Source: a virus (taxonomy: Duplodnaviria > Heunggongvirae > Uroviricota > Caudoviricetes). From it: a DNA stretch of 10,339 nucleotides. The number at the start of each line of letters is the position of its first letter. Within the stretch, counting starts at the first letter, position 1. A model generated the notes under the pieces. It was not told where the DNA came from. It made no database searches and was given only the letters and a program-made list of their open reading frames with translations. The position numbers were made by a program, and so were the translations under genes. The stretch is taken from IMG/VR virus record IMGVR_UViG_2671180710_000010, positions 1 through 10,339 of that record; one strand, given 5' to 3'. Positions 1-10,339 of this stretch are shown here, one piece after another.

Positions 1-232
1 TAGCGCCCGCTGACCGCTGCCAGCCTTTCAGCATGTAAATCGCATCCACACAACGAATCATTGCCATGCAAATATCCATGTAGTGCGGCTGTGTCAGCCC
101 GTCCGGAAGTACTGCCGGGTTTAAGACGGTATGCCCTTCCCGTTTCAGTTCCTCTTCCGCCTTGTGAAACGCCTCACGGTTGAAATTTTCATATCCCGTC
201 ATTGGACCGGCAATATAAACTCTCACCCTCAC
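1..232 (-). CDS. DUF4406-like (nucleoside 2-deoxyribosyltransferase-like) protein, N-terminal part only; gene runs off the window start
   Basis: Minus-strand translation from GTG at 232 gives MRVRVYIAGPMTGYENFNREAFHKAEEELKREGHTVLNPAVLPDGLTQPHYMDICMAMIRCVDAIYMLKGWQRSAGA with no stop to position 1. AGGAGG SD (245..240) lies 7 nt upstream and the start overlaps the stop of the upstream gene. The YIAGPMTG...NF..F motif matches my recollection of DUF4406 proteins. Start could instead be GTG 226 or ATG 202. Confidence 0.5.
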   Translation of the reverse strand, partial: MRVRVYIAGPMTGYENFNREAFHKAEEELKREGHTVLNPAVLPDGLTQPHYMDICMAMIRCVDAIYMLKGWQRSAGA

Positions 233-621
233 TCCATCACCTCCTGAAAGTTTCCCCGATAGAACGCCAGCACACGCTGCATAACTTCGCTCTGGCGGCA
301 CTCACGACAAATTATGTTCTGCCGTCTGTTGTAACGACGTATTTCTCCGTCAGGTAACTTTCGAATCAGTGTCGGGTCAGCAGCCTTCTCCGGTGTCTTA
401 CGCCATACGCGATACGCCTGCTCTGATGGAAATACCCCGCAATCAGAGAGCCAGACATCACCACTGACCGCAAGCGCACCAGATAAACGACGAATAGCGG
501 TCTTACTGACACCCGTTTTATCTGCCAGTTGTCGAAAAGTTTCTCGTCCGCTCAGGCGCACGAATTCCACAATGCGCGCCTTCACTTCTTCCCGCTCTTC
601 TGGTGTAAATACTTTTGCCAT
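229..621 (-). CDS. Hypothetical phage protein with a predicted helix-turn-helix (about 130 aa)
   Basis: Listed ORF 229..636 begins at a TTG. ATG at 621 has a GGAGG SD 5 nt upstream, giving MAKVFTPEEREEV.... HTH-like segment TFRQLADKTGVSKTAIRRL; C-terminal CRECRQ. Sits 15 nt after the upstream gene in the same operon. Confidence 0.55.
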   Translation of the reverse strand: MAKVFTPEEREEVKARIVEFVRLSGRETFRQLADKTGVSKTAIRRLSGALAVSGDVWLSDCGVFPSEQAYRVWRKTPEKAADPTLIRKLPDGEIRRYNRRQNIICRECRQSEVMQRVLAFYRGNFQEVME

Positions 622-636
622 AAGCGCCTCCGGCAA

Positions 637-1398
637 TCACTTTTCCGATACAACACGGCGGGAAGAATCAGTAATCTGTCGAACAATATCCCGGTGCTTG
701 TTCAGCTCCCGCAGCGCGGCGCAGACTCGCTCCCACTTCTGAACATCACTTTTCGCCCTGCGCAGCGCCAGGTTTGCCCTGCGCAGGGACGGAAAAATCA
801 GCTCATCTGCTTGCGTTTCGGTAAACGATGGCAACGACTGCACAATGTCCGCCACAGTTTCTGTTTTAATTTCTTCCTGTGTTGCGGCTTCCCGGACTGG
901 TAACGCAGCACCTGCTGGCTGAGGAAAGGCCTTACCATCACTTTCCGTTACCGATGCTGCTTTCGGCTCTGCTGGTAAATTATCGCCCGGCATGCAGTAA
1001 CGAAATTTACCGTTCTGATTAACGCGAATCAGACGACCTTTACTGATTGCCATTGCCAGCTTTGAAGCCACTTTGCGTGATGTGATGCCGAAAAACGTAG
1101 CCAGTTCATCCGCCGTTTGTGGGCCACGTTGTTCAATCGTCGCAGTTAAATCGCTCTCCGAAATTTTAGCGACTGTTGCCGTGGTGGTTTCTTCCGACAG
1201 TTCTGCCGGCGCTGGCTGTTCCCGCTGAACGTTGTTATAAGCCACACGCCAGGTGTACGCGCTTTTATCAACGAAACCAGCCTTTTTCAGTTCCCATAGT
1301 TCGTTCAGCACTTCTTCACGACTGATATCAAGTCGCGCAGCCAGTTCTACCGACGTGGCTTTTCCCATCGCTTTCAGTGCGTCAAAAACAGTCTCCAT
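637..1398 (-). CDS. Phage protein with two predicted winged-helix segments (DUF1627-like, recalled family)
   Basis: 253-aa ORF. ATG at 1398 has GGAGG 6 nt upstream. Two similar HTH-like segments ([26 protein letters not shown] and [29 protein letters not shown]). Family name is from memory only. Confidence 0.6.
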
Positions 1399-1430
1399 AA
1401 ATTTCCTCCCGGTAAAAATTACTTCTCAAC

Positions 1431-2096
1431 TCAAACAAACCCAGCCGCTTTCCGGCGTTCATATTCCTGTTTCAGCAACTCAATTGGCGTTGGCCCCGAC
1501 GGGCGTTTGGGTGCCGCCAGTTGTCGCCGGACTGGCGGAACGCTCAGGCCGTTACTAACATGCTTTGCCCATTTCGCCAGCTGCCGTTCTGCAAGCCGTT
1601 TTAATTCCCCTTCGGTCATCTGGCGCTCAATCCCCTTTGAACGCATCTCGAGGCAAATGTGATACAGCACAGGCTGAGACCACGGGTACTTATCACTTCC
1701 GTCATATCGCCAGGACTCATTGCGCCAGCGGCGGTACTCCTCCATCACAGCATCCACCGTCAGACCGAATGGATTGGCTCCGCTTTCCGAAATCAGTGCC
1801 ACAAACTCAGCCAGGTCCGGAGGCCATGTTTCACCCGCCCGGCAGCGGTCCATGCACTGGCGGCAGACCTGTCGGATTTGCTGCTCAGTCATCGCGCCAA
1901 TCTGTGCAATCCAGAGCTTCGAAGGTGCGGCCCCGTTCTTCTGGGTCCAGCGGTTCGAATAAACCTCCCCCATGAGTTCCCACAGCTTCCAGACCGTTTC
2001 CGTCGCTGATAAATCCGTTTTCACGTTCCCACTGCTCACGTGCTGCCCGAATTTCCTGAACTGCCCGTGATGCGGTGCCACCTGGTGCTGCTGCAT
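1431..2096 (-). CDS. Replication protein P-like (DnaB helicase loader family)
   Basis: 221-aa ORF. C-terminal region (..EYRRWRNESWRYDGSDKYPWSQPVLYHICLEMRSKG..TEGELKRLAERQL..) aligns by eye with the recalled lambda P C-terminus (..YEYCRKRGLYPDAESYPWKSNAHYWLV..TDAELRRKAADEL..). ATG 2096 has AGGGGG 6 nt upstream but overlaps the O-like gene by 212 nt; alternative starts at 1973 or 1892. Confidence 0.65.
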   Translation of the reverse strand: MQQHQVAPHHGQFRKFGQHVSSGNVKTDLSATETVWKLWELMGEVYSNRWTQKNGAAPSKLWIAQIGAMTEQQIRQVCRQCMDRCRAGETWPPDLAEFVALISESGANPFGLTVDAVMEEYRRWRNESWRYDGSDKYPWSQPVLYHICLEMRSKGIERQMTEGELKRLAERQLAKWAKHVSNGLSVPPVRRQLAAPKRPSGPTPIELLKQEYERRKAAGFV

Positions 2097-2925
2097 GGTT
2101 TACCCCCTTGCTGACTGGTTTAACCTGCGCCCTGACGTGATTTACGTGACGGGCGAATTTCTGCTCCCACTGAATCTGCGTAAACACTTTCCCCTCCGCT
2201 GCCCAGTAGTCCCGGAAGGCGGCAAGTTCAGCAGGTGTAAATTCTGTCTCCGGCAAAGCCATCCCCCACAACGCAGCCCGTCGTCGAAAATCCCGTGACG
2301 GATACCAGCTATCGGTCATCGGAAATTTTCCGATGGGTTCGCTCAGGCCATCCAGGAATACAAGGGGTGCTGCCTGTAACGACAAAACTTCCTGCTCACT
2401 GGTCGGAGCACTCTCGCGTGCGTTATGTGTGGGGTTTAGATCTTTGGGTTCCTTTGGGTTCCGTGATCCGTTTTTGGGTGTCTTTGATGGAAAATTTGGG
2501 TGTCTTTGGTTATTTTCCATGCAGCTAAGAGTTCCGTTTTTGGGTCTGTTTTGTGCTGAAACATAACCATTTTCGGTACTGTTTTTATTAACAGCACCAA
2601 TTTTACCCACCTTTAAAGACTCCCGTTTTTGGGTGTATTCAGGCTCGGCAACACTTTCTTCTACACCGATAAGTCGGTACACCACAATTTGCTTTGTTCT
2701 GCCTTTTCTCTCACCGGTATCAACAATTAACCCAATCTCCATCAGGTGTCGTAAGCTGTCCTGCACAGTCTTTTTGTTCAGTTCCGTTACTTCTGCCAGT
2801 GCAGATACAGACGGGTATGCACACAAATCGGCACCGCACATATCAGCAAGCCAAGTCAATACAGACTTACTGGATGAACTGCCGGTTTTCACCTTTTTAG
2901 CCCATCGTAGTGCATCGATACTCAT
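1885..2925 (-). CDS. Replication initiator (lambda O position): N-terminal HTH domain, central low-complexity linker encoded by the iterons, C-terminal DnaT-like region
   Basis: ORF is open 1885..3000. ATG at 2925 (MSIDALRWAKKVK...) has AGGGG 5 nt upstream and overlaps the upstream gene end by 29 nt. N-terminal HTH (LAEVTELNKKTVQDSLRHLMEIGLI), Pro/Lys/Asn-rich linker, C-terminal FTPAELAAFRDYWAAEGKVFTQIQWEQKFARHV. Position between the CII-position gene and the P-like gene. Confidence 0.65.
   Translation of the reverse strand: MSIDALRWAKKVKTGSSSSKSVLTWLADMCGADLCAYPSVSALAEVTELNKKTVQDSLRHLMEIGLIVDTGERKGRTKQIVVYRLIGVEESVAEPEYTQKRESLKVGKIGAVNKNSTENGYVSAQNRPKNGTLSCMENNQRHPNFPSKTPKNGSRNPKEPKDLNPTHNARESAPTSEQEVLSLQAAPLVFLDGLSEPIGKFPMTDSWYPSRDFRRRAALWGMALPETEFTPAELAAFRDYWAAEGKVFTQIQWEQKFARHVNHVRAQVKPVSKGVNHAAAPGGTASRAVQEIRAAREQWERENGFISDGNGLEAVGTHGGGLFEPLDPEERGRTFEALDCTDWRDD
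2441..2640. repeat. Iteron cluster plus AT-rich tract inside the O-like gene (putative replication origin)
   Basis: Same-orientation copies with a TTTGGGT core: CCGTTTTTGGGTGTCTTTG (2468-2486), AAAATTTGGGTGTCTTTGG (2491-2509), CCGTTTTTGGGTCTGTTTTG (2534-2553), CCGTTTTTGGGTGTATTC (2623-2640), plus tandem CTTTGGGTTCC x2 (2441-2462). AT-rich stretch 2554-2620. Same arrangement as ori-lambda inside gene O. Confidence 0.5.
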
Positions 2926-3448
2926 ACGAACCCCTGGCAGACATTTGTTTATCTGCAAAGTAATATTGATATTGCTGACGATACGCATGCTTGAAAGCAA
3001 TAGCTTTTTCTATAAGCTCGTCAGTCTCACGTTCCACAACAGATGGATCCGCAAAAAGCAGCCCGGACTCCACCACATCGCCATATTCTTTGTTTAACCC
3101 GGCGATCATGTACGTAATGCTTTTTCCGTCAGTAATTTCACAATACAACCTGAAATCGCTGATCCGGATAGCCTCCATAATTGCCGGAATCAGCGCCGTG
3201 AATTTTTCCCGCTTATCCCTGGTGTCGATAGCTTTCCAGCGTTCGAATATCTTCACCCGGTTAACGCCCAGCGCCCGTTGATCAACCTCGCCATCATTAA
3301 ACGTGACGCGTTGAACATCGATGTTCGGGCGTTCTTTCAGAGCCCAGAATGCTTCCGTGATTAATATCGTCGCCTGCTCCTGTGTCATTCCTGGTCGGCA
3401 TACCCAGGCATCCAGAGCCTCACAAACCTGTTCAGGGGTGATTTTCAT
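2897..3448 (-). CDS. YdaT-like regulator in the CII position (183 aa)
   Basis: ATG at 3448 overlaps the end of the cro-like gene by 17 nt. Motif TRDKREKFTALIPAIMEAI resembles the REK..LIPAI segment I recall in Rac YdaT. Position immediately downstream of cro-like and upstream of the replication genes. Confidence 0.45.
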   Translation of the reverse strand: MKITPEQVCEALDAWVCRPGMTQEQATILITEAFWALKERPNIDVQRVTFNDGEVDQRALGVNRVKIFERWKAIDTRDKREKFTALIPAIMEAIRISDFRLYCEITDGKSITYMIAGLNKEYGDVVESGLLFADPSVVERETDELIEKAIAFKHAYRQQYQYYFADKQMSARGSYEYRCTTMG

Positions 3449-3659
3449 TGTTCAACCGCCCCGCCCGCTTCGTCTTACGATATTCGTCATAAACTTTGGG
3501 ATCATACTGAAGCTCACCGCCAGATGCCTCCTGTAGACGCATCGCGCGACCTTCAGGAACCAGTTTCCCCCATGCAGCAACGCTTGCCAGCCTAACTCCT
3601 GCGGCATTGGCAAGCTTTGTTTTGCTGCCAAAAAACGCTATAGCATCAATTTTCAACAT
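3432..3659 (-). CDS. dicC: Cro-like repressor DicC
   Basis: 75 aa (MLKIDAIAFFGSKTKLANAAGVRLASVAAWGKLVPEGRAMRLQEASGGELQYDPKVYDEY...). AAGGAG SD 6 nt upstream of the ATG. Divergent from the dicA-like gene across a 76-bp operator region. Matches recalled DicC/YdaS-Cro family proteins. Confidence 0.8.
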   Translation of the reverse strand: MLKIDAIAFFGSKTKLANAAGVRLASVAAWGKLVPEGRAMRLQEASGGELQYDPKVYDEYRKTKRAGRLNNENHP

Positions 3660-3735
3660 ATCGAACTCCTTAGATTTTCCTAAGGAAACTAGATCGTAGA
3701 GAAACCTAAGTCAAGAAAAATTAGAATTACCTAAT
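3660..3735. promoter_or_regulatory. Divergent promoter/operator region between dicC and dicA
   Basis: Inverted repeat CCTTAG-N6-CTAAGG (3668-3685). AACCTAAG (3703-3710) overlaps a minus-strand -35 TTGACT (rc of 3709-3714). Plus-strand -10 TAGAAT (3722-3727) sits 8 nt before the dicA ATG, which has no SD. Confidence 0.6.
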
Positions 3736-4143
3736 ATGAAAAACGAAACCTTCGGTGCTCGCCTCTTATACAGGCGTAAAAAATTAAAACTGTCTCAGGC
3801 CGCATTAGGTAAGCTGGTCAAAGTGGCTCACGTAACAATTTCTCAATGGGAAAGAGATGAAACACAGCCAGCGGGGAAGAGATTATTCGCACTGAGCCAG
3901 GCGCTTCAGTGCTCGCCGACTTGGCTTCTTTTTGGAGATGAAGATAAGCAACCAGGCGAACCGATCCCAGATAATCAGCCAGTTAATCTGACAGAAGATC
4001 AAAAAGAGTTGCTTCAACTGTTCGACGCACTGCCTGAGTCAGAGCAAAAGGCTCTGTTGTCAGAGATGCGTGCTCGAGTTGAGAATTTCAACAAACTTTT
4101 TGAAGAACTACTCAAAGCTCGCAAAAGAAGCGCAAATAAATAA
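3736..4143 (+). CDS. dicA: Immunity repressor DicA (XRE-family HTH)
   Basis: 135 aa. N-terminal HTH (LSQAALGKLVKVAHVTISQWERDE). Motifs FALSQALQCSPTWLLFGDEDKQP and EMRARVENFNKLFEELLKARKR match my recollection of E. coli K-12 DicA, also 135 aa. Confidence 0.85.
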   Translation: MKNETFGARLLYRRKKLKLSQAALGKLVKVAHVTISQWERDETQPAGKRLFALSQALQCSPTWLLFGDEDKQPGEPIPDNQPVNLTEDQKELLQLFDALPESEQKALLSEMRARVENFNKLFEELLKARKRSANK

Positions 4144-4214
4144 CCCCCCCTTTTTTCGCCACTCTCTGTAATAAAAATCACAAACTTTCAAATGCTTGTG
4201 TTTTTTACATCAAA

Positions 4215-4271
4215 AAACTTAGGTTTTTCTACACAAAAAGCTTGACCACAATTCTTAGGTTATTCTAAATT
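4215..4271 (+). promoter_or_regulatory. Candidate promoter of the downstream ydfA-dicF-dicB operon with overlapping operator-like repeats
   Basis: -35 TTGACC (4242-4247), 18-nt spacer, -10 TAAATT (4266-4271). Two direct CTTAGGTT copies (4218-4225, 4254-4261), the reverse complement of AACCTAAG in the dicC-dicA intergenic region. Confidence 0.4.
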
Positions 4272-4347
4272 CTACTCATCAAGACACCGCACGGTGTTCT
4301 CAGCAAACAGTTCCGCTACCCTGGCGTTAAGGGGAAATGAGGTCAGC

Positions 4348-4500
4348 ATGGATACTATCGATCTTGGCAACAACGAATCTCTGGTATGCGGCGTGTTTCC
4401 CAACCAGGACGGCACGTTTACCGCGATGACGTATACCAAAAGTAAAAAGTTTAAAACCGAAGCTGGCGCGCGTCGCTGGTTAGCCAGAAACACTAACTGA
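4348..4500 (+). CDS. ydfA: Small protein YdfA-like (50 aa)
   Basis: ATG 4348 has GAGG 5 nt upstream; MDTIDLGNNESLVCGVFPNQDGTFTAMTYTKSKKFKTEAGARRWLARNTN. The listed ORF starts at GTG 4294 without an SD. Same position and size as K-12 Qin ydfA (51 aa, recalled). Confidence 0.55.
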   Translation: MDTIDLGNNESLVCGVFPNQDGTFTAMTYTKSKKFKTEAGARRWLARNTN

Positions 4501-4750
4501 TTAGCACCAGTAAAAACAGGTTGCCACTGGTTAATTTACCCTGAAAAGTCAGGGCATAACACGAAAGCGCACGGAGAAGCTCGTCTCTCTGTACTTTGTC
4601 GTTAAATTTAATTCGACCGTGCGCTTCCGGTTGTGGCAATCCGCGAAATGGCGCGGCGGTAAGTATGGCGGGGTTATTCCTTCCCCTTGAGGACACCGGG
4701 TTGTCAGGCTGACCATACGCTTAAGTGACAGCCCCGCCACAATATCCATG

Positions 4751-4803
4751 TGTAGTCTTTGGTGGCATCAGTTCTACTCCGTGACTGCTCTGCCACCCTT
4801 TTT
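4751..4803 (+). ncRNA. dicF: DicF small RNA (ftsZ-targeting sRNA of dicB operons)
   Basis: TTTGGTGGCATCAGTTCTACTCCGTGACTGCTCTGCCACCCTTTTT closely matches recalled K-12 DicF (..GGCGGUAUCAGUUUUACUCCGUGACUGCUCUGCCGCCCUUUUU). Ends in an intrinsic terminator. 5' end approximate. Confidence 0.7.
4761..4803 (+). terminator. Intrinsic terminator forming the DicF 3' end
   Basis: Perfect 7-bp stem GGTGGCA (4761-4767) / TGCCACC (4791-4797) with inner CAGT/ACTG pairing, followed by TTTTT (4799-4803). Confidence 0.65.
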
Positions 4804-5010
4804 AAAGTGAATTTTGTGATGCGGTGAATGCGGCTAAGCGCACGCGGAACAGTTAAAACCGTAAAGTGGTCTTTTACGGGGCGTAACGGGCATACTTCTG
4901 TATTCCGGCGTTAATTGTTAACTGGTTAACGTCACCTGGAGGCACCAGGCACTGCATCAACAAAGTTCACTTCGGTGATGAAAGGTAAGAGAAAATGTTG
5001 AATGTAGCTA

Positions 5011-5039
5011 TTGAAAACCAGAACGGGTGGAATTATAGT
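5011..5039 (+). promoter_or_regulatory. Near-consensus sigma70 promoter upstream of rha
   Basis: -35 TTGAAA (5011-5016), 17-nt spacer, -10 TATAGT (5034-5039). Predicted start near 5046. Confidence 0.4.
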
Positions 5040-5094
5040 GCACCTGCACCTCATAAAACGGGTGCCGGGATTGCTACCCCGATGTTCATCATGG

Positions 5095-5127
5095 CGCATA
5101 ACCGCGCTCAGGCGGTTTTTTTATGCG
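5095..5127 (+). terminator. Intrinsic terminator-like hairpin with U-tract
   Basis: Stem AACCGC (5100-5105) / GCGGTT (5112-5117), 6-nt loop, T-run 5116-5122. An alternative outer stem CGCATAA (5095-5101) / TTATGCG (5121-5127) is also possible. About 75 nt downstream of the predicted start. Confidence 0.5.
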
Positions 5128-5288
5128 TAATGCACAGCCACATTCAGATTATGGTGGGGCGTGCAGGGCAGCCGCAAGGCTGGCCGGGTTCCATGATGAC
5201 CGGTTGTAGCAACCCTGTGCGTCTCACCACCCATGAGATTGCTACCTCCGGTGGTGAGTTAATGAAATTCATCATGGAGGCTGCCATC

Positions 5289-5846
5289 ATGGCTACTATC
5301 CCTGCCCTTTCTCACCCTGAAATTACTATCGCCAATGGGCGTGCTGTTACATCCTCTTTAGCTGTTGCCGAGTATTTCCGGAAACCACACAAAGATGTAC
5401 TGGCAAAAATTTCACGTCTAGACTGTTCAGCGGAATTCACTGAGCGAAATTTTTCGCCCAGTGAATATACCGACTCAACCGGGCGCAAACTCCCTATGTA
5501 CCAAATCACCAAAAACGGCTTCGTTTTCCTGGTGATGGGCTTCACCGGCAAAAAAGCCGCTGCATTTAAAGAAGCCTACATCGCTGAGTTCGATCGCATG
5601 GAGAAAGAACTGCGCCAGAATAACGCCCCGTCTCCCGACAAAATGATTCACGGGGACGGACGTACCCTGGTTATCCGTCTCGACGAACACGGCAATATCA
5701 AATTCACTGAAACCGTTCCGGACGGCGCAATGGTCTGCACCCTGGATACCTTCCAGTTTTATCTGGAAAAACAAGGCTGGACTCTTGTAAACCGGAGCGC
5801 AATTAAAAATATGACTGTGGAGCAATTACTAAAAATTCATTGTTGA
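5289..5846 (+). CDS. rha: Phage regulatory protein Rha family
   Basis: ATG 5289 has GGAGG 8 nt upstream. N-terminus MATIPALSHPEITIANGRAVTSSLAVAEYFRKPHKDVLAKI fits the Rha N-terminal domain pattern. The listed ORF extends in frame to 4995, but that extension contains the promoter and terminator above and has atypical composition. Confidence 0.75.
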   Translation: MATIPALSHPEITIANGRAVTSSLAVAEYFRKPHKDVLAKISRLDCSAEFTERNFSPSEYTDSTGRKLPMYQITKNGFVFLVMGFTGKKAAAFKEAYIAEFDRMEKELRQNNAPSPDKMIHGDGRTLVIRLDEHGNIKFTETVPDGAMVCTLDTFQFYLEKQGWTLVNRSAIKNMTVEQLLKIHC

Positions 5847-5856
5847 GGACGCGATA

Positions 5857-6045
5857 ATGGAAACGTTATTACCAAACGTTAATACGTCTGAAGGGTGTTT
5901 TGATATTGGTGTTCTGCTCAGTAACCGGGAGTTTACTGAAGATGCCATTAAGATGAGAAAATATGAGCCTTATCTTCTCAATGATAATTCCATACTCTCC
6001 AGAATTGCCCTTCTTGAACTTGGTATTTTCGGGGGGCAGCAGTGA
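5857..6045 (+). CDS. dicB: Cell-division inhibitor DicB
   Basis: 62 aa, METLLPNVNTSEGCFDIGVLLSNREFTEDAIKMRK..., matching recalled K-12 DicB (MKTLLPNVNTSEGCFEIGV...; 62 aa). GAGGA SD 7 nt upstream. Downstream of dicF. Confidence 0.8.
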   Translation: METLLPNVNTSEGCFDIGVLLSNREFTEDAIKMRKYEPYLLNDNSILSRIALLELGIFGGQQ

Positions 6046-6230
6046 CTTCTGCATTTGCACTGGTAATGACTGTTTTTCTTATAACGGGTGAATCACAGAA
6101 TGTGATTACCGGAATTTATGCCAGTAAAGAATCCTGCCTCCAGGCAAGAGACGAGCAAAAAATTTCTGGTGAATGCCTCCCGTTAAAAAAAGTATCGCTG
6201 TACCTGAATAACGAAATACCGGCTGGATAA
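6042..6230 (+). CDS. ydfD: Small membrane protein, YdfD-like (62 aa)
   Basis: GTG start overlaps the dicB stop (GTGA), with a G-run 5 nt upstream. N-terminal hydrophobic segment AFALVMTVFLITG. Position matches ydfD after dicB in K-12 Qin (recalled). Confidence 0.55.
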   Translation: MTSAFALVMTVFLITGESQNVITGIYASKESCLQARDEQKISGECLPLKKVSLYLNNEIPAG

Positions 6231-6322
6231 CCCACCAGCCATATTAACGCCATACAAACGGATTAAAAATGCCAGCAATGGCAGGGATTCGCACAACCTT
6301 AAAATAGTAATGAGGTTTATCA

Positions 6323-8866
6323 ATGAGCACTGATAAAGAAACTTTTGCACTATATTGCGAAGCAAAAAATGACAAGGTCAGAAAACGCCTTGGGATTAAA
6401 GGTGGTTTTTACTGGACTACAGCAAAAAAATTATCTGTTGCCATCTCCCGCTGCATTACCGCAATGGATGATAATGATTATGACGAGGACGACTTTAAAA
6501 AACCTGTTCGCGTCCATTTACCCGTTGTGAATGACCTTCCTCCAGAAGGCGTGTTTGATACTGAATTCTGCAACCGTTACGAAAAAGGCGGGGAAGATGG
6601 TATCACAATGATATTTATAGCTCCTTCCCCTTCAGCTCAGGACAAACCTGCCAGCACTGACAATACCAGCGGCGAAGCTGTTACAGGTGTCAGCCGTGAC
6701 TGCGATGAACAAAGTGACTCTCAGACAGAGAACGCAGATAAAAGCGAATCCCCGGACAGCAACGATGACTGCCCTGAATGTGAAATCCCCGTCTCCACCC
6801 TGAGTCTTACCCATCGCTTCCTGCACCTCTACTTCTTTGGTCAGGAGTTCGACGAGAAATACAAACATCACGCCACACCAGAACAACGCAAGGACGTGAT
6901 CCGCATCGAAATGGATATGGAAGATGGAAACATACAGAGCCTGCTTACTGCAGTACGTTCGCATCCTGAGCTGGATAAGCTGACAAACCATCATCTTGGA
7001 AGACTGGCGCATTCGGTGGAAAAGGCATTCACTCACGCAACAACACGCCGTATCAGCCCGGCAGAATTCGACAAGTTCATTTCCACCTGGATGAAGACTG
7101 ACTACCTTGATCAGGGGCTGTTGACAAAAGAGTGGGCAAAGGGAAATTGCGTATCTGAAATCAATCGCACCCCGTCCGGCGCTAATGCTGGCGGAGGAAT
7201 TCTTACCGATCGCGGTGAAGGTTTTGTCCACGATGATGCGTCAGTGGAACGTGACGTTGCCGCTGGCGTTCTGGCCCGTTCAATGGACATCGATATTTAC
7301 AATCCACATCCGGCACACGCCAAACGCATTGAAGAAATCGTTTCAGAGAATAAGCCGCCCTTTTCTGTTTTTCGTGACAAACTCATCGCCATGCCTGGTC
7401 ACCTGGATTATTCCCGCGCGATAGTAGTTGCGTCCGTGAAAGAAGCACCAATTGGTATCGAGGCTACTCCCCACCGTGTTACCGAATATCTGAACAAAGT
7501 ACTGACCGAAACCGACCATGCCAACCCTGATCCAGAAATCGTGGATATTGCCTGCGGTCGCTCCTCTGCTCCAATGCCGCAGCGTGTAACAAAAGAAGGA
7601 AAACAGGATGATGAAGAAAAACCGCAGCCAACTGGCGCAATGGCAGATGAACAGGCAACGACTGAAGCAGTGGAACCGGATACAACTGAACATAATCAGG
7701 ACACGCAGTCGATGGATGCTCAGCCACAGATAAATTCTGTTGATGCGAAATATCAGAAACTGCGTGCAGAACTCCATGAAGCCAGGAAAAACATTCCACC
7801 CAAAAATCCTGTCGATGCAGATAAATTACTGGCTGCTTCTCACGGAGAATTTGTTGAAGGGATTAGCGACCCGAATGATCCGAAATGGGTGAAGGGGATT
7901 GAAACCCGCGATTCTGTGAACCAGAACCAGCACGAATCGGAACAAAACGACCAGAAAGCGGAACAAAACAGCCCAAATGCGTTACAAAACGAGCCAGAAA
8001 CGAAACAGCCTGAACCAGAAGAGCAACAAGAACCGGAAAAAGTCTGCACCGCCTGCGGTCAGACCGGCGACGGCAACTGTCCTGACTGTGGCGCGGTAAT
8101 GGGCGACGCAACATACCAGGAAACATTCAACGAAGAAAGCCAGGATGAAGCCCGGGAGAAAGATCCAGAGGAAATGGAAAGTGCCGTATACCCGAACAAG
8201 GAGTGCACCGAAGGCGATCAACATGCCAATGGCAATAATGAAACAGGCGAGACAGCAAATCCCTTAATTAAGGTGAACGGTCATCACGAAAGCACATCCA
8301 CCAGCAGGTTGTGGCACCATCTGATGATTGACCTTGAAACAATGGGCAAAAATCCTGATGCCCCAATAAACGCTCTGGCCGGTAAGTTTTTTGATCCGGC
8401 AACCGGAGAGATGGGGCCAGAATTCAGCAAAACTATCGATCTGGAAACCGCAGGCGGAGTCATCGATCGGGACACCATTAAGTGGTGGCTGAAACAGTCA
8501 CGGGAAGCACAATCAGCCATTCTGACCGATGAAATCCCGTTGGATGACGCACTGTTGCAATTACGGGAATTTATCGACGAAAACTCCGGTGAATTTTTTG
8601 TTCAGGTCTGGGGAAATGGAGCCAACTTCGACAACGTGATTTTACGCCGTTCATATGAACGGCAGGAGATCCCCTGCCCGTGGCGTTACACCAATGATCG
8701 TGATGTAAGAACGATTGTTGCCCTGGGGCTGGTGATGGATTTCGATGCTCGAAGTGTCATCACATTTGAGGGTGAACGCCATAATGCCCTGCACGATGCG
8801 CGTTACCAGGCAAAATACGTTTCAGCTATCTGGCAAAAACTGTTCCCGAATCAGGCTGATTTTTAA
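6323..8866 (+). CDS. Large multidomain protein with C-terminal DEDDh (DnaQ-like) 3'-5' exonuclease domain, in the recE/ydfE position
   Basis: 847-aa ORF with GAGG SD 7 nt upstream. C-terminal exonuclease motifs: MIDLETMG (D670, E672; nt 8324-8347), GANFDNVIL (D770; nt 8630-8632), HNALHDA (H820, D825; nt 8780-8797). Cys clusters CPEC (aa 150-153) and C-x2-C-x7-C-x2-C (aa 575-589, nt 8045-8089). Long acidic/Gln-rich low-complexity linkers. Confidence 0.8.
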
Positions 8867-8932
8867 TGTTCAACCCATATCGCCGCCCACCAGCTATAGT
8901 GGCGGCGGTCATGCTGTAAGGCACGTGACCAC

Positions 8933-9184
8933 ATGTACGAATTAACTCTATCGCCAGCAGAAATTCAAGAGATCACGAGATACGAACGGTATACAAAACA
9001 GCAACAACAGTTAAGGTTGCACGGTATCCCATTTGTACCCGGTCCTAAAAACGAACCAATAGTTCTTCGCAGTGATGTCCCGCGCGGACTGACTGCGATA
9101 CCGAAAGTATCTGAACTGGTTTCTGCTGACCCCGATTTTGAGGCGCTGAACAATGGGAAGACCAAGAAAAAACAAAAAAGATAA
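8933..9184 (+). CDS. xis: Excisionase (Xis-like)
   Basis: 83 aa; N-terminus MYELTLSPAE and basic C-terminus NGKTKKKQKR resemble lambda Xis (MYLTLQEW... / ..RNGKKAKS, recalled). 3' end overlaps the int start by 32 nt, as in lambda. Confidence 0.6.
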   Translation: MYELTLSPAEIQEITRYERYTKQQQQLRLHGIPFVPGPKNEPIVLRSDVPRGLTAIPKVSELVSADPDFEALNNGKTKKKQKR

Positions 9185-10172
9185 TGCACTACCGCCACGT
9201 GTTAGATCGAATGGTTACAGTTACGTATGGAAACCCGAAGGAAGCACAAAAACTATAGGGCTCGGAAGAGTGCGGGAAACCACCATAGCTAAAGTCTGGC
9301 AGAATTATGAACTGGAAAAAGCAAAACGCCACAACATAATGACCGTCGCTAAATTATGGCACATGTTTATGGATTCCCCCGCATTTACAGAACTGGCCCC
9401 CAGAACCCAAAAAGATTATCGGCAACATCAGAGGGCGTTGCTGGCAGTCTTCGGAAAAGTACTGGCTGATAATGTAAAAATTGAGCAGGTAAGAATTTTC
9501 ATGGATAAACGGGGGATTGAGAGCAAGACCCAGGCAAACCATGAACTGGCAAGTCTCAGTCGTGTATACGGGTGGGGATATGAACGTGGATATGTGAAGA
9601 ATAACCCATGCAAAGGAGTCAGGAAATTTACGCTTAAAGCCCGCACTGTTTACATCACAGATGAACAGTATGCGGCGATATATGCGGAAGCAATACCACA
9701 GTTACGCATTGCAATGGAGATATCCTATCTTTGTGCGGCAAGACTCGGTGATGTGCTCGAGCTGAAATGGCAGGATATTATGGATAAAGGGATCTACATT
9801 GAGCAAAACAAGACCGGCACCAAACAAATCAAGGAATGGTCTCCACGATTACGAACCGCGATCCAGTTAGCCAGAAATGTATCTTCAGGCACATGTGAAT
9901 ATGTGATCAACACAACCAAGGGCGGGAAGGTCATAGCTAAAACGCTAAACAACTGGTGGAACCAGGCTAAACACGCAGCCGAGAAAAAATCCGGCGTCCC
10001 GTTTGGGTGCAATTTCCATGACATAAAAGCCAAAGGGATATCAGATTACGAAGGAAGCAGTCGCGACAAACAGATTTTCAGTGGACATAAAACAGAAAAT
10101 CAGGTGTTGATTTATGATCGTAAAACAAAAATCACGCCGACACTGGATTTGCCACTTGTGGTCAGCAAGTAG
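9153..10172 (+). CDS. int: Tyrosine integrase (lambda Int family)
   Basis: 339 aa. N-terminus MGRPRKNKKDNALPPRVRSNGYSYVWKPEGSTKTIGLGR resembles the lambda Int arm-binding N-terminus. C-terminal ..FHDIKAKGISDYEGSSRDKQIFSGHKTENQVLIYDRK aligns with lambda HELRSLSARLYEKQISDKFAQHLLGHKSDTMASQYRDDRG (recalled), including the catalytic Tyr. Lies next to the att core. Confidence 0.9.
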   Translation: MGRPRKNKKDNALPPRVRSNGYSYVWKPEGSTKTIGLGRVRETTIAKVWQNYELEKAKRHNIMTVAKLWHMFMDSPAFTELAPRTQKDYRQHQRALLAVFGKVLADNVKIEQVRIFMDKRGIESKTQANHELASLSRVYGWGYERGYVKNNPCKGVRKFTLKARTVYITDEQYAAIYAEAIPQLRIAMEISYLCAARLGDVLELKWQDIMDKGIYIEQNKTGTKQIKEWSPRLRTAIQLARNVSSGTCEYVINTTKGGKVIAKTLNNWWNQAKHAAEKKSGVPFGCNFHDIKAKGISDYEGSSRDKQIFSGHKTENQVLIYDRKTKITPTLDLPLVVSK

Positions 10173-10311
10173 GCAACTCAGGAAATTTTCTGGCAAAAAA
10201 AGACTTGGTATACTAACTCTGAAAGCTCCCTAACAGCCTGATTTTTCTAGGTGTTAAGTTTGGTTAATTTTTCAGCAGTTTTTTGTATTGCATTGATTTT
10301 TATTTGTTTTT

Positions 10312-10339
10312 CATCGGTCTTGAAAACCGGCGACCCGAA
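10312..10339 (+). other. Attachment-site core: 3' portion of a tRNA-Ser(UGA)-like sequence, truncated by the window end
   Basis: CATCGGTCTTGAAAACCGGCGACCCGAA forms an anticodon stem-loop (stem TCGGT/ACCGG, loop CTTGAAA, anticodon TGA). It matches my recollection of E. coli tRNA-Ser(UGA) from the anticodon stem onward (..CACCGGUCUUGAAAACCGGCGACCCGAAAGGG..). Upstream sequence is unrelated to a tRNA 5' half. Confidence 0.45.

Follow-up and report, generated by a model that had tools for sequence, protein, structure and literature searches.

An IsrK-family RNA and a C4-type antisense RNA upstream of rha and dicB in a Qin-like prophage

Introduction

Between the small RNA gene dicF and the regulatory gene rha of a Qin-like prophage lies a short stretch that has a promoter at one end, an intrinsic terminator at the other and little sign of a protein in between. 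What does such a unit make, and what would it do to the genes that follow? The first-pass annotation of the window, by which we mean the whole 10,339-nt stretch of DNA that was analyzed (positions 1 to 10,339 of IMG/VR record IMGVR_UViG_2671180710_000010), had left two readings side by side: an independent sRNA next to DicF, or a terminator-controlled leader for rha and dicB. We compared the stretch with curated RNA families, with homologous loci in phages and Escherichia coli genomes, and with the characterized systems of Gifsy-1 and P1/P7. Taken together, the sequence comparisons make it very likely that positions 5046-5122 belong to the IsrK family and form the a1-b1 half of a C4-type antisense module. 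Both the family and its mechanism, as known from Gifsy-1 and P1/P7, are already described and curated, and the element reported here is an ordinary representative rather than a new one.

Results

A 77-nt IsrK-family RNA between dicF and rha

Searched in full against Rfam at gathering thresholds, the window gave three matches, all on the plus strand: DicF (4747-4798), isrK and C4. The isrK match (RF01394) covers 5046-5122 from model position 1 to 77 of 77, with 65.5 bits against a gathering score of 50. The transcription unit of about 75 nt postulated earlier is hence 77 nt long, and its anticipated start near 5046 and end near 5122 are exactly the ends of the family match. A covariance model purpose-built from nine IsrK sequences scored the window element at 89.7 bits; the RNAalifold consensus of the nine had mis-registered the terminator, and a hand-set structure was imposed for the model. 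The question of sRNA or leader appears to have been a false choice, as homology backs both roles at once, and the Gifsy-1 prototype has been shown experimentally to be both a released sRNA and the leader of a read-through mRNA (PMC4825925).

The predicted structure consists of two 5' hairpins and a terminator. Hairpin 1 (5046-5065, -7.7 kcal/mol) is formed by GCACC(U)/(G)GGUGC and is present in the minimum-free-energy fold, in agreement with the GCACC/GGTGC stem noticed in the first reading. Hairpin 2 (5066-5081, -5.0 kcal/mol) presents the sequence UUGCUAC, which we call a1, in its loop at 5071-5077. A second segment, b1 (UUCAUCAUGG, 5085-5094), lies just 5' of the terminator, which is an AACCGC/GCGGTT hairpin at 5100-5117 (-9.2 kcal/mol) with a run of seven T's at 5116-5122, again as had been proposed. 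The 77-mer as a whole folds no better than shuffled sequences (z = -1.5), and since folding alone carries no signal, we judged the structure by covariation. All six pairs of hairpin 1 show compensatory changes, and 99.4% of the cells in the alignment are paired, compared with 36-55% in slid controls. Hairpin 2 is paired in 100% of cells. The terminator is present in all aligned sequences, with only 61% of cells paired and a register that differs between subfamilies. Covariation among homologous prophage regions, which had been suggested as a check, therefore supports two 5' hairpins and an intrinsic terminator, and it extends to the pairing sites described below.

The same stretch also resembles the c4-a1b1 family (RF03163), which a permissive search placed at 5033-5085 below threshold (19.6 bits against a gathering score of 46.7, E = 0.014). 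The layout is that of a1b1: two hairpins, a1 in the loop of the second, b1 immediately 3', and both segments complementary to the a' and b' sequences of C4. We withhold formal membership on account of the score, and the window element is a functional counterpart of a1b1 rather than a formal member of RF03163.

A C4-type antisense RNA and a second pair of target sites precede rha

The third Rfam match, a C4-type antisense RNA (RF01695, 77.9 bits against a gathering score of 45), occupies 5147-5234 and starts 25 nt downstream of the IsrK unit. The first-pass annotation had correctly drawn the promoter-terminator unit and overlooked C4, without which the unit cannot be understood. C4 has a predicted fold energy of -46.3 kcal/mol and displays b' (UUCCAUGAUGA, 5189-5199) in the loop of its second hairpin and a' (GUAGCAA, 5206-5212) in the single-stranded joint beside it. 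Downstream of C4, both IsrK segments recur: a2 (UUGCUAC, 5239-5245) repeats a1 at a distance of 168 nt, and b2 (UUCAUCAUGG, 5268-5277) repeats b1 at a distance of 183 nt and overlaps the Shine-Dalgarno sequence GGAGG (5276-5280) of rha. The segments a1 and a2 are complementary to a', and b1 and b2 are complementary to b', which places a C4 target directly at a downstream ribosome-binding site. IsrK thus sits upstream of a complementary C4 and of an antirepressor-type gene on the same strand.

Energy predictions favor these pairings over all others that we compared. Among 60 variants of the specificity sequences, the window's own combination ranks first for the duplex of C4 with a1b1 (-32.6 kcal/mol) and for that of C4 with a2b2 (-35.6 kcal/mol). 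When the read-through transcript is folded to minimum free energy, a1 and b1 are bound to a' and b' (z = -3.9), which corresponds to the inactive "structure A" of Gifsy-1 (PMC4825925). A local hairpin at 5230-5300 (-29.2 kcal/mol) is predicted to be able to sequester the Shine-Dalgarno sequence without C4, so removal of C4 alone may be insufficient for rha to be translated.

The pairing sites change together across a large family of modules

Homologs of the module occur in 3,128 of 5,426 complete E. coli genomes and in 219 phage records, where they precede genes annotated as Rha, Ant, Ash or Icd-like. In an alignment of the window with six phage loci, a1, a' and a2 change together, as do b1, b' and b2. 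Three near-identical scaffolds differ almost solely in these six segments and in the P2 hairpin of C4.

We also assembled 119 IMG/VR loci, chosen solely by a C4-derived pattern, which contain 60 distinct a'b' variants. In nearly all of the 119, C4 is preceded by an isrK-model match at a distance of about 25-30 nt. When each C4 variant was paired with the IsrK a1b1 sequences, the predicted duplexes had a median energy of -33.8 kcal/mol for cognate and -19.6 kcal/mol for non-cognate combinations; the cognate partner was the best or tied for best in 44 of 60 cases and fell within the top 10% in 58. The corresponding medians for a2b2 were -27.4 and -18.4 kcal/mol, with the cognate partner best or tied in 23 and within the top 10% in 55 of the 60. 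The window's exact a1b1 is rare, occurring in 4 of 5,426 E. coli genomes, and the matching a'b' is found in the same 4.

Relationship to the Gifsy-1, P1/P7 and P4 systems

The prototype of IsrK comes from the Salmonella prophage Gifsy-1 (Hershko-Shalev et al. 2016, PMC4825925). Its promoter drives both a terminated 77-nt sRNA and a translationally silent read-through mRNA, isrK-orf45-anrP; the sRNA, which accumulates at a length of about 77 nt and binds Hfq, acts in trans to activate the read-through mRNA of its own locus, raising translation of anrP more than 100-fold (PMC4825925). Activation requires translation of orf45, and in the published model the effect passes through orf45 translation and its coupling to anrP; the antirepressor ribosome-binding site is not unmasked directly (PMC4825925). 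Pairing was confirmed there with the compensatory mutants G28A/C162U and G31A/C159U (PMC4825925), whose positions align to a1 and a' of the window. In our Rfam search, the Gifsy-1 IsrK overlaps a c4-a1b1 match that does pass the gathering score (48.1 bits) and is followed by C4 and then anrP, and the P1-like phage D6 carries isrK, C4, icd and ant in the same order.

The window and Gifsy-1 share a 77-nt RNA with three hairpins, the last of them an intrinsic terminator, a sigma-70 promoter of its own whose -10 hexamer ends 6 nt before the start site, a spacing of about 25-30 nt between IsrK and a C4-like RNA (STnc1160 in Gifsy-1) ahead of an antirepressor-type gene, complementarity of the middle of IsrK to the C4-like region, and a conserved AUG at the 5' end of C4 that opens a reading frame. 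That AUG, at 5151 in the window, is the counterpart of the first start codon of orf45. The two modules differ in hairpin 1 and in the a and b specificity sequences. They also differ in location and neighbors: the Gifsy-1 module follows antQ in the late region, whereas ours lies between dicF and dicB of a Qin-like prophage, with a Rha-family gene and then dicB downstream where Gifsy-1 has isrJ. Finally, orf45 (first start at +107) ends in an AUGA overlap with anrP, while the frame opened by AUG 5151 runs into rha.

The immunity region immI of P1 and P7 has the same order of elements (a1 b1, c4, a2 b2, icd, ant; RF01695 and RF03163), as laid out in the supplement of Weinberg 2010 (PMC2864571). 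Both systems have a' and b' sequences complementary to one pair of sites upstream and another downstream, the latter overlapping a ribosome-binding site, together with hypervariable specificity and an operon that contains a cell division inhibitor and an antirepressor-type gene. In the published outline of the phage system, C4 pairs near the ribosome-binding site, which represses synthesis of the antirepressor and sets heteroimmunity, and the C4 RNA of P1 is described as processed from a precursor, repressing translation and exerting polarity on downstream genes. The promoter of P1 immI is controlled by the phage repressor C1. The window departs from this arrangement in that b2 lies directly on the rha ribosome-binding site with no intervening icd homolog, in that its division inhibitor is dicB, which has no relationship to icd and follows the regulator gene instead of preceding it, and in its sub-threshold c4-a1b1 score (19.6 bits). 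In the supplement of Weinberg 2010, Citron and Schuster 1990 are further credited with the proposal that a1/b1 compete with a2/b2 for C4, which would allow ant to be expressed (PMC2864571). A third relative is the seqA-CI RNA-seqC region of phage P4, which we liken to the window through the description in the Gifsy-1 paper alone; its authors call IsrK a structural homolog of P4 SeqA, with CI as the C4-like partner, and note that CI causes premature transcription termination, not a translation block (PMC4825925).

A putative switch and the case for action in trans

These comparisons suggest how the module could work. Transcription would begin at about 5046 from the conserved promoter at 5011-5039, and most transcripts would end at the terminator (5100-5122) as the 77-nt sRNA. 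The remainder would read through into C4 (5147-5234) and then into a2 and b2 over the rha ribosome-binding site, where pairing with a' and b', which the co-variation supports, would leave rha untranslated; dicB would probably be kept silent as well, by polarity. IsrK carries a1 and b1, the same sequences as a2 and b2, and would therefore compete for a' and b' both from within the long transcript, in cis, and, once released as the short sRNA, in trans. Such competition, judging from the shared sequences and from Gifsy-1, would shift the leader to a translatable form. By analogy with P1, C4 would repress in this prophage, and by analogy with Gifsy-1, IsrK would activate in trans through the pairing of a1 with a'; the balance between terminated and read-through RNA, any part played by Rho and Hfq and the consequence for dicB are inferences. 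The regulated step may differ from that of Gifsy-1, given that the equivalent of orf45 is fused in frame to rha in the window.

An alternative is that the element acts purely in cis as an attenuator leader, for example with C4 modulating termination in the manner of P4 CI, and that the released 77-mer is an inert by-product. The read-through fold described above, with a1/b1 bound to a'/b' as in structure A, would fit such a leader, and the authors of the Gifsy-1 study themselves raise a P4-like termination role for STnc1160 (PMC4825925). The same study argues the other way, however, since the short Gifsy-1 RNA, when provided in trans, boosts translation by a factor of 100 or more and in vitro binds to the long RNA, and since co-expression of STnc1160 failed to relieve IsrK toxicity (PMC4825925). 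In the window, 5 nt separate the end of b1 from the terminator stem, so the two do not overlap and no obvious antiterminator pairing exists. We consider an exclusively cis-acting leader improbable and favor an IsrK RNA that would act both as leader and as sRNA.

The open frame through the module does not evolve like a gene

One objection to an RNA module is that the region is annotated as protein. An open reading frame of 283 codons, 4995-5846, runs through the module into rha, and it could be a real gene with an N-terminal "Ash" portion fused to Rha, in which case the promoter and terminator would be incidental. RefSeq/PGAP annotates this frame in the 100% identical strain N51 and in its relatives, PHROG families include its N terminus, and residues 14-109 match Pfam Phage_ASH (PF10554) over the full model length at 67.2 bits against a cut-off of 26. 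The family is named after the ash locus of phage P4. In some phages, the long frame abuts the preceding gene. The long frames of two phages (L003 and L005) gave no Pfam domain in their N-terminal ~116 residues, a result that speaks neither for nor against those frames.

The pattern of variation points to RNA instead. Column entropy across 5046-5288 is 0.742, 0.754 and 0.713 at the three codon positions, showing no periodicity, compared with 0.97, 0.83 and 1.30 in the adjacent rha coding sequence, where periodicity starts at 5289. The third-position variation across 4995-5288 that the first-pass annotation had named as evidence for a genuine extension of Rha is thus lacking over the 5046-5288 part where it was computed. 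The Phage_ASH model still awards 44.4 bits to a conceptual translation of a module that has four in-frame stops, which argues that it recognizes a translated RNA scaffold, not a coding sequence; a pass of the HMM cut-off by the window frame is not matched by evolution as protein. Stops interrupt the Ash frame in 37 of 98 distinct modules, Gifsy-1 and the window have different reading frames across the C4 3' half, and conservation sets in at the transcription start rather than at the ATG at 4995. Every conserved or co-varying feature is accounted for by RNA pairing. The Gifsy-1 authors likewise found orf45 conserved in its nucleotides and variable in its amino acids (PMC4825925).

One observation is only partly accounted for. 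Of the 98 distinct modules, 61 are free of stops in the Ash frame between the IsrK 5' end and the rha start; the other two frames are open in 17 and 7, and shuffling of the variable blocks leaves 14.2 +/- 3.4 modules open. Stops touching these blocks number 72 in the Ash frame against 162 expected, and the other frames are undepleted. We treat the signal as suggestive, since a1/a2 and b1/b2 share a frame and their constraints are not independent, and the depletion varies from block to block once the count is restricted to unique variants. The earlier statement that the unit holds no convincing reading frame therefore stands as regards codon periodicity and has to be tempered as regards openness, one frame being open more often than expected. 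The data suggest selection to keep the Ash frame open and that translation through the module matters in some phages. A stronger form of this idea, that the module is kept open in the frame of the C4 AUG and Ash, from the IsrK 5' end to the downstream gene, such that ribosomes coming from an upstream gene or start codon translate through the terminator and C4 and override both, strikes us as rather unlikely; if true, the override would apply to transcription that enters the region from an early promoter upstream, and an N-terminally extended regulator would be made. Translation is known solely for the part from the C4 AUG onward (orf45), and only in Gifsy-1 (PMC4825925). As an outright Ash-Rha gene with incidental signals, the 283-codon frame has very little left in its favor, and we retain the RNA module as the better account of 5046-5234.

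Where, then, does rha begin? The Rha domain and TIGR02681 both start about 10 residues after the methionine encoded at 5289, and the phrog_518 alignment starts at residue 12 of the protein counted from there. The stretch GAGGCTGCCAT.ATGGCTAC is nearly invariant across the alignment of the window and six phage loci, in keeping with a nearly invariant Shine-Dalgarno sequence and ATGGCTAC at the rha start. From the onset of periodicity, the domain starts and this near-invariance, the ATG at 5289 is most likely the start of rha (5289-5846, plus strand), a Rha-family regulator of antirepressor type, rather than the RefSeq start at 4995.

A positionally conserved promoter at the predicted start of IsrK

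A consensus scan found five promoter-like sites in the window, of which TTGAAA-17-TATAGT (5011-5039, plus strand) ranks first with 10 of 12 matches; its -35 hexamer occupies 5011-5016 and its -10 hexamer 5034-5039, and the predicted start is G5046. The claim of a near-consensus sigma-70 promoter was well founded in this respect. Neither class of signal goes beyond chance in the window: shuffles lead one to expect 11.4 promoter-like and 12.4 terminator-like sites, and 5 and 19 are present, so on sequence alone the promoter and terminator could be fortuitous. Comparison with homologous modules is far more informative. Of 68 distinct upstream sequences, 67 place the end of their best -10 hexamer precisely 6 nt ahead of the RNA 5' end, the geometry also seen in Gifsy-1. 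Spacers measure 17 or 18 nt, and most scores fall at 8-11 of 12, compared with mostly 5-7 in a control window shifted upstream by 55 nt. Homology to other phages and prophages begins at 5046-5047, which coincides with the predicted start, and extends to the start of the downstream gene. IsrK accordingly has its own promoter, which would set its 5' end. The notion that these signals are a functionless coincidence, which the lack of enrichment would have allowed, has next to no probability left and is refuted by comparison: the Rfam match is full-length and exceeds the gathering score, the promoter is conserved in position, and there are compensatory changes and three-way co-variation.

Other candidate features of the region fared less well. 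A palindrome upstream of the promoter, put forward as a possible regulator-binding site at about 4917-4930, is indeed found there on the plus strand as GTTAACTGGTTAAC, two direct copies of the palindromic hexamer GTTAAC, in the dicF-dicB spacer and outside the module. We reject it as an operator on grounds of conservation: it is 100% conserved in the Qin prophage of K-12, which is without the promoter and cassette, and it is absent from the sequences upstream of the isrK promoters of other modules that we compared. A sub-threshold STnc100 match (4810-4964; 30.8 bits, gathering score 47) encloses it, and there it folds into an RNA hairpin. A minus-strand frame of 55 codons (4932-5099), antisense to the promoter and IsrK, has no PHROG match and spans the onset of homology, and we do not regard it as a gene. 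A 28-codon frame at 5123-5209 gave no Pfam match.

The module and rha form a cassette that K-12 Qin lacks

Relative to K-12 Qin, the promoter, isrK, C4 and rha form a cassette of about 870 bp (4962-5831, plus strand) that sits between dicF and the dicB ribosome-binding site and is absent from the K-12 prophage at that place; its limits were drawn from blastn and alignments against MG1655. Strain 7/2 retains a 5' fragment of dicB to the left of the cassette. In a Rac-like prophage of O157:H7, a near-identical cassette precedes kilR. The cell division inhibitor gene dicB (5857-6045, plus strand), taken from the list of open reading frames and from the RefSeq annotation of the identical strain N51, begins 10 nt past the rha stop, and the consensus scan found no terminator-like site in the gap. 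We conclude that dicB is probably co-transcribed with rha from the promoter of the module.

Discussion

The short unit between dicF and rha is thus best read as the first part of a larger RNA module, and its meaning extends to annotation, to specificity and to the genes under its control. RefSeq Rha is probably about 98 codons too long and hides two RNA genes. For Pfam Phage_ASH and several PHROG families, the underlying sequences seem to be in large part conceptual translations of the same RNA module.

The a and b sequences constitute a highly diverse specificity code, and the code of the window is found in 4 of 5,426 E. coli genomes against more than 3,000 for the module itself. Such diversity is relevant to cross-talk or insulation between prophages that reside in the same cell. 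For the prophage studied here, the cassette places rha, and probably dicB too, behind a promoter and an RNA switch of their own, downstream of the DicF terminator. Expression of DicB in this prophage may therefore not depend solely on the DicA-controlled dicB promoter described for K-12.

The C4 antisense RNA and the promoter region of the module

The IsrK-like RNA has as its functional partner a C4 antisense RNA, which lies without annotation on the plus strand at positions 5147 to 5234 of the window (Rfam RF01695, 77.9 bits) and begins 25 nt 3' of the IsrK-like RNA. The first-pass annotation did not include this second RNA.

Most homologous modules have a CCGGG/CGGG motif in their promoter spacer, immediately 5' of the -10 element; examples are TCCGGGGCTATATT and TTCCGGGACGTTACACT in homologs and ACGGGTGGAATTATAGT at positions 5022 to 5028 of the window. 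The motif may be a binding site for a common regulator or may simply reflect common ancestry. Farther upstream, the conserved spacer 3' of DicF carries a subthreshold plus-strand match to the Rfam family STnc100 (positions 4810 to 4964; 30.8 bits, E = 5e-5, with the gathering score set at 47), within which RNA stems are formed by a GTTAACTGGTTAAC repeat and a CACCUGG/CCAGG hairpin.

The cassette, its copies, and their specificities

The promoter, isrK, C4, and rha make up an 870-bp cassette (approximately 4962 to 5831) that is missing between dicF and dicB in the Qin prophage of K-12 (locus L129, approximately 3085 to 3092). The left edge of the cassette in strain 7/2 (L130, 2669 to 2752) is marked by a truncated dicB 5' pseudogene, and positions 4962 to 5010 of the window resemble a decayed dicB ribosome-binding region, from which the ATG at 4995 may derive.

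An almost identical cassette, differing in a/b pairing specificity, lies in a Rac-like prophage of Escherichia coli O157:H7 G5295 (L131, 2494 to 3610) and is directly followed on its 3' side by kilR, like dicB a cell division inhibitor gene. The arrangement recalls that of icd in the immI operon of P1 and that of dicB in the window. In phage P14437 (L006), the annotated antirepressor gene antB2, located 3' of the Rha-like gene, is overlapped by a plus-strand match to the Rfam family sRNA-Xcc1 (2223 to 2306; 79.6 bits).

In several viral contigs, the entire module, consisting of isrK, C4, and a short Rha-like gene, is present in tandem as two or three copies (L043, 9289 to 11266, minus strand, with a period of 656 nt; also L015, L028, L029, L087, L101, and L107). 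The a/b specificity differs in each copy, and the long open reading frames (ORFs) of successive copies share a 4-nt overlap. The exact a1b1 (IsrK) and a'b' (C4) blocks of the window are present in only 4 of 5,426 genomes. Each occurs twice in the E. coli N51 genome (NZ_CM165887.1), so that a single cell may harbor a pair of modules with the same specificity.

Protein annotations over the RNA genes

The promoter, IsrK, and C4 all fall inside long ORFs annotated by RefSeq and in phage genomes (window, 4995 to 5288; L003, 844 to 1995; L005, 854 to 1999; L007, 973 to 1995). Across positions 5046 to 5288 of the window and 98 homologous modules (L002 to L128), the hypervariable specificity blocks are depleted of stop codons in the frame of the conserved C4 AUG, with 72 observed versus 162 expected; no depletion was seen in the other two frames of these blocks, and the strength of the C4-frame depletion is uneven from block to block. 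The translated module matches Pfam Phage_ASH (PF10554) and several PHROGs. Since the Phage_ASH model also matches a module translation interrupted by four in-frame stops, these protein families appear to have been built largely on translated RNA genes.
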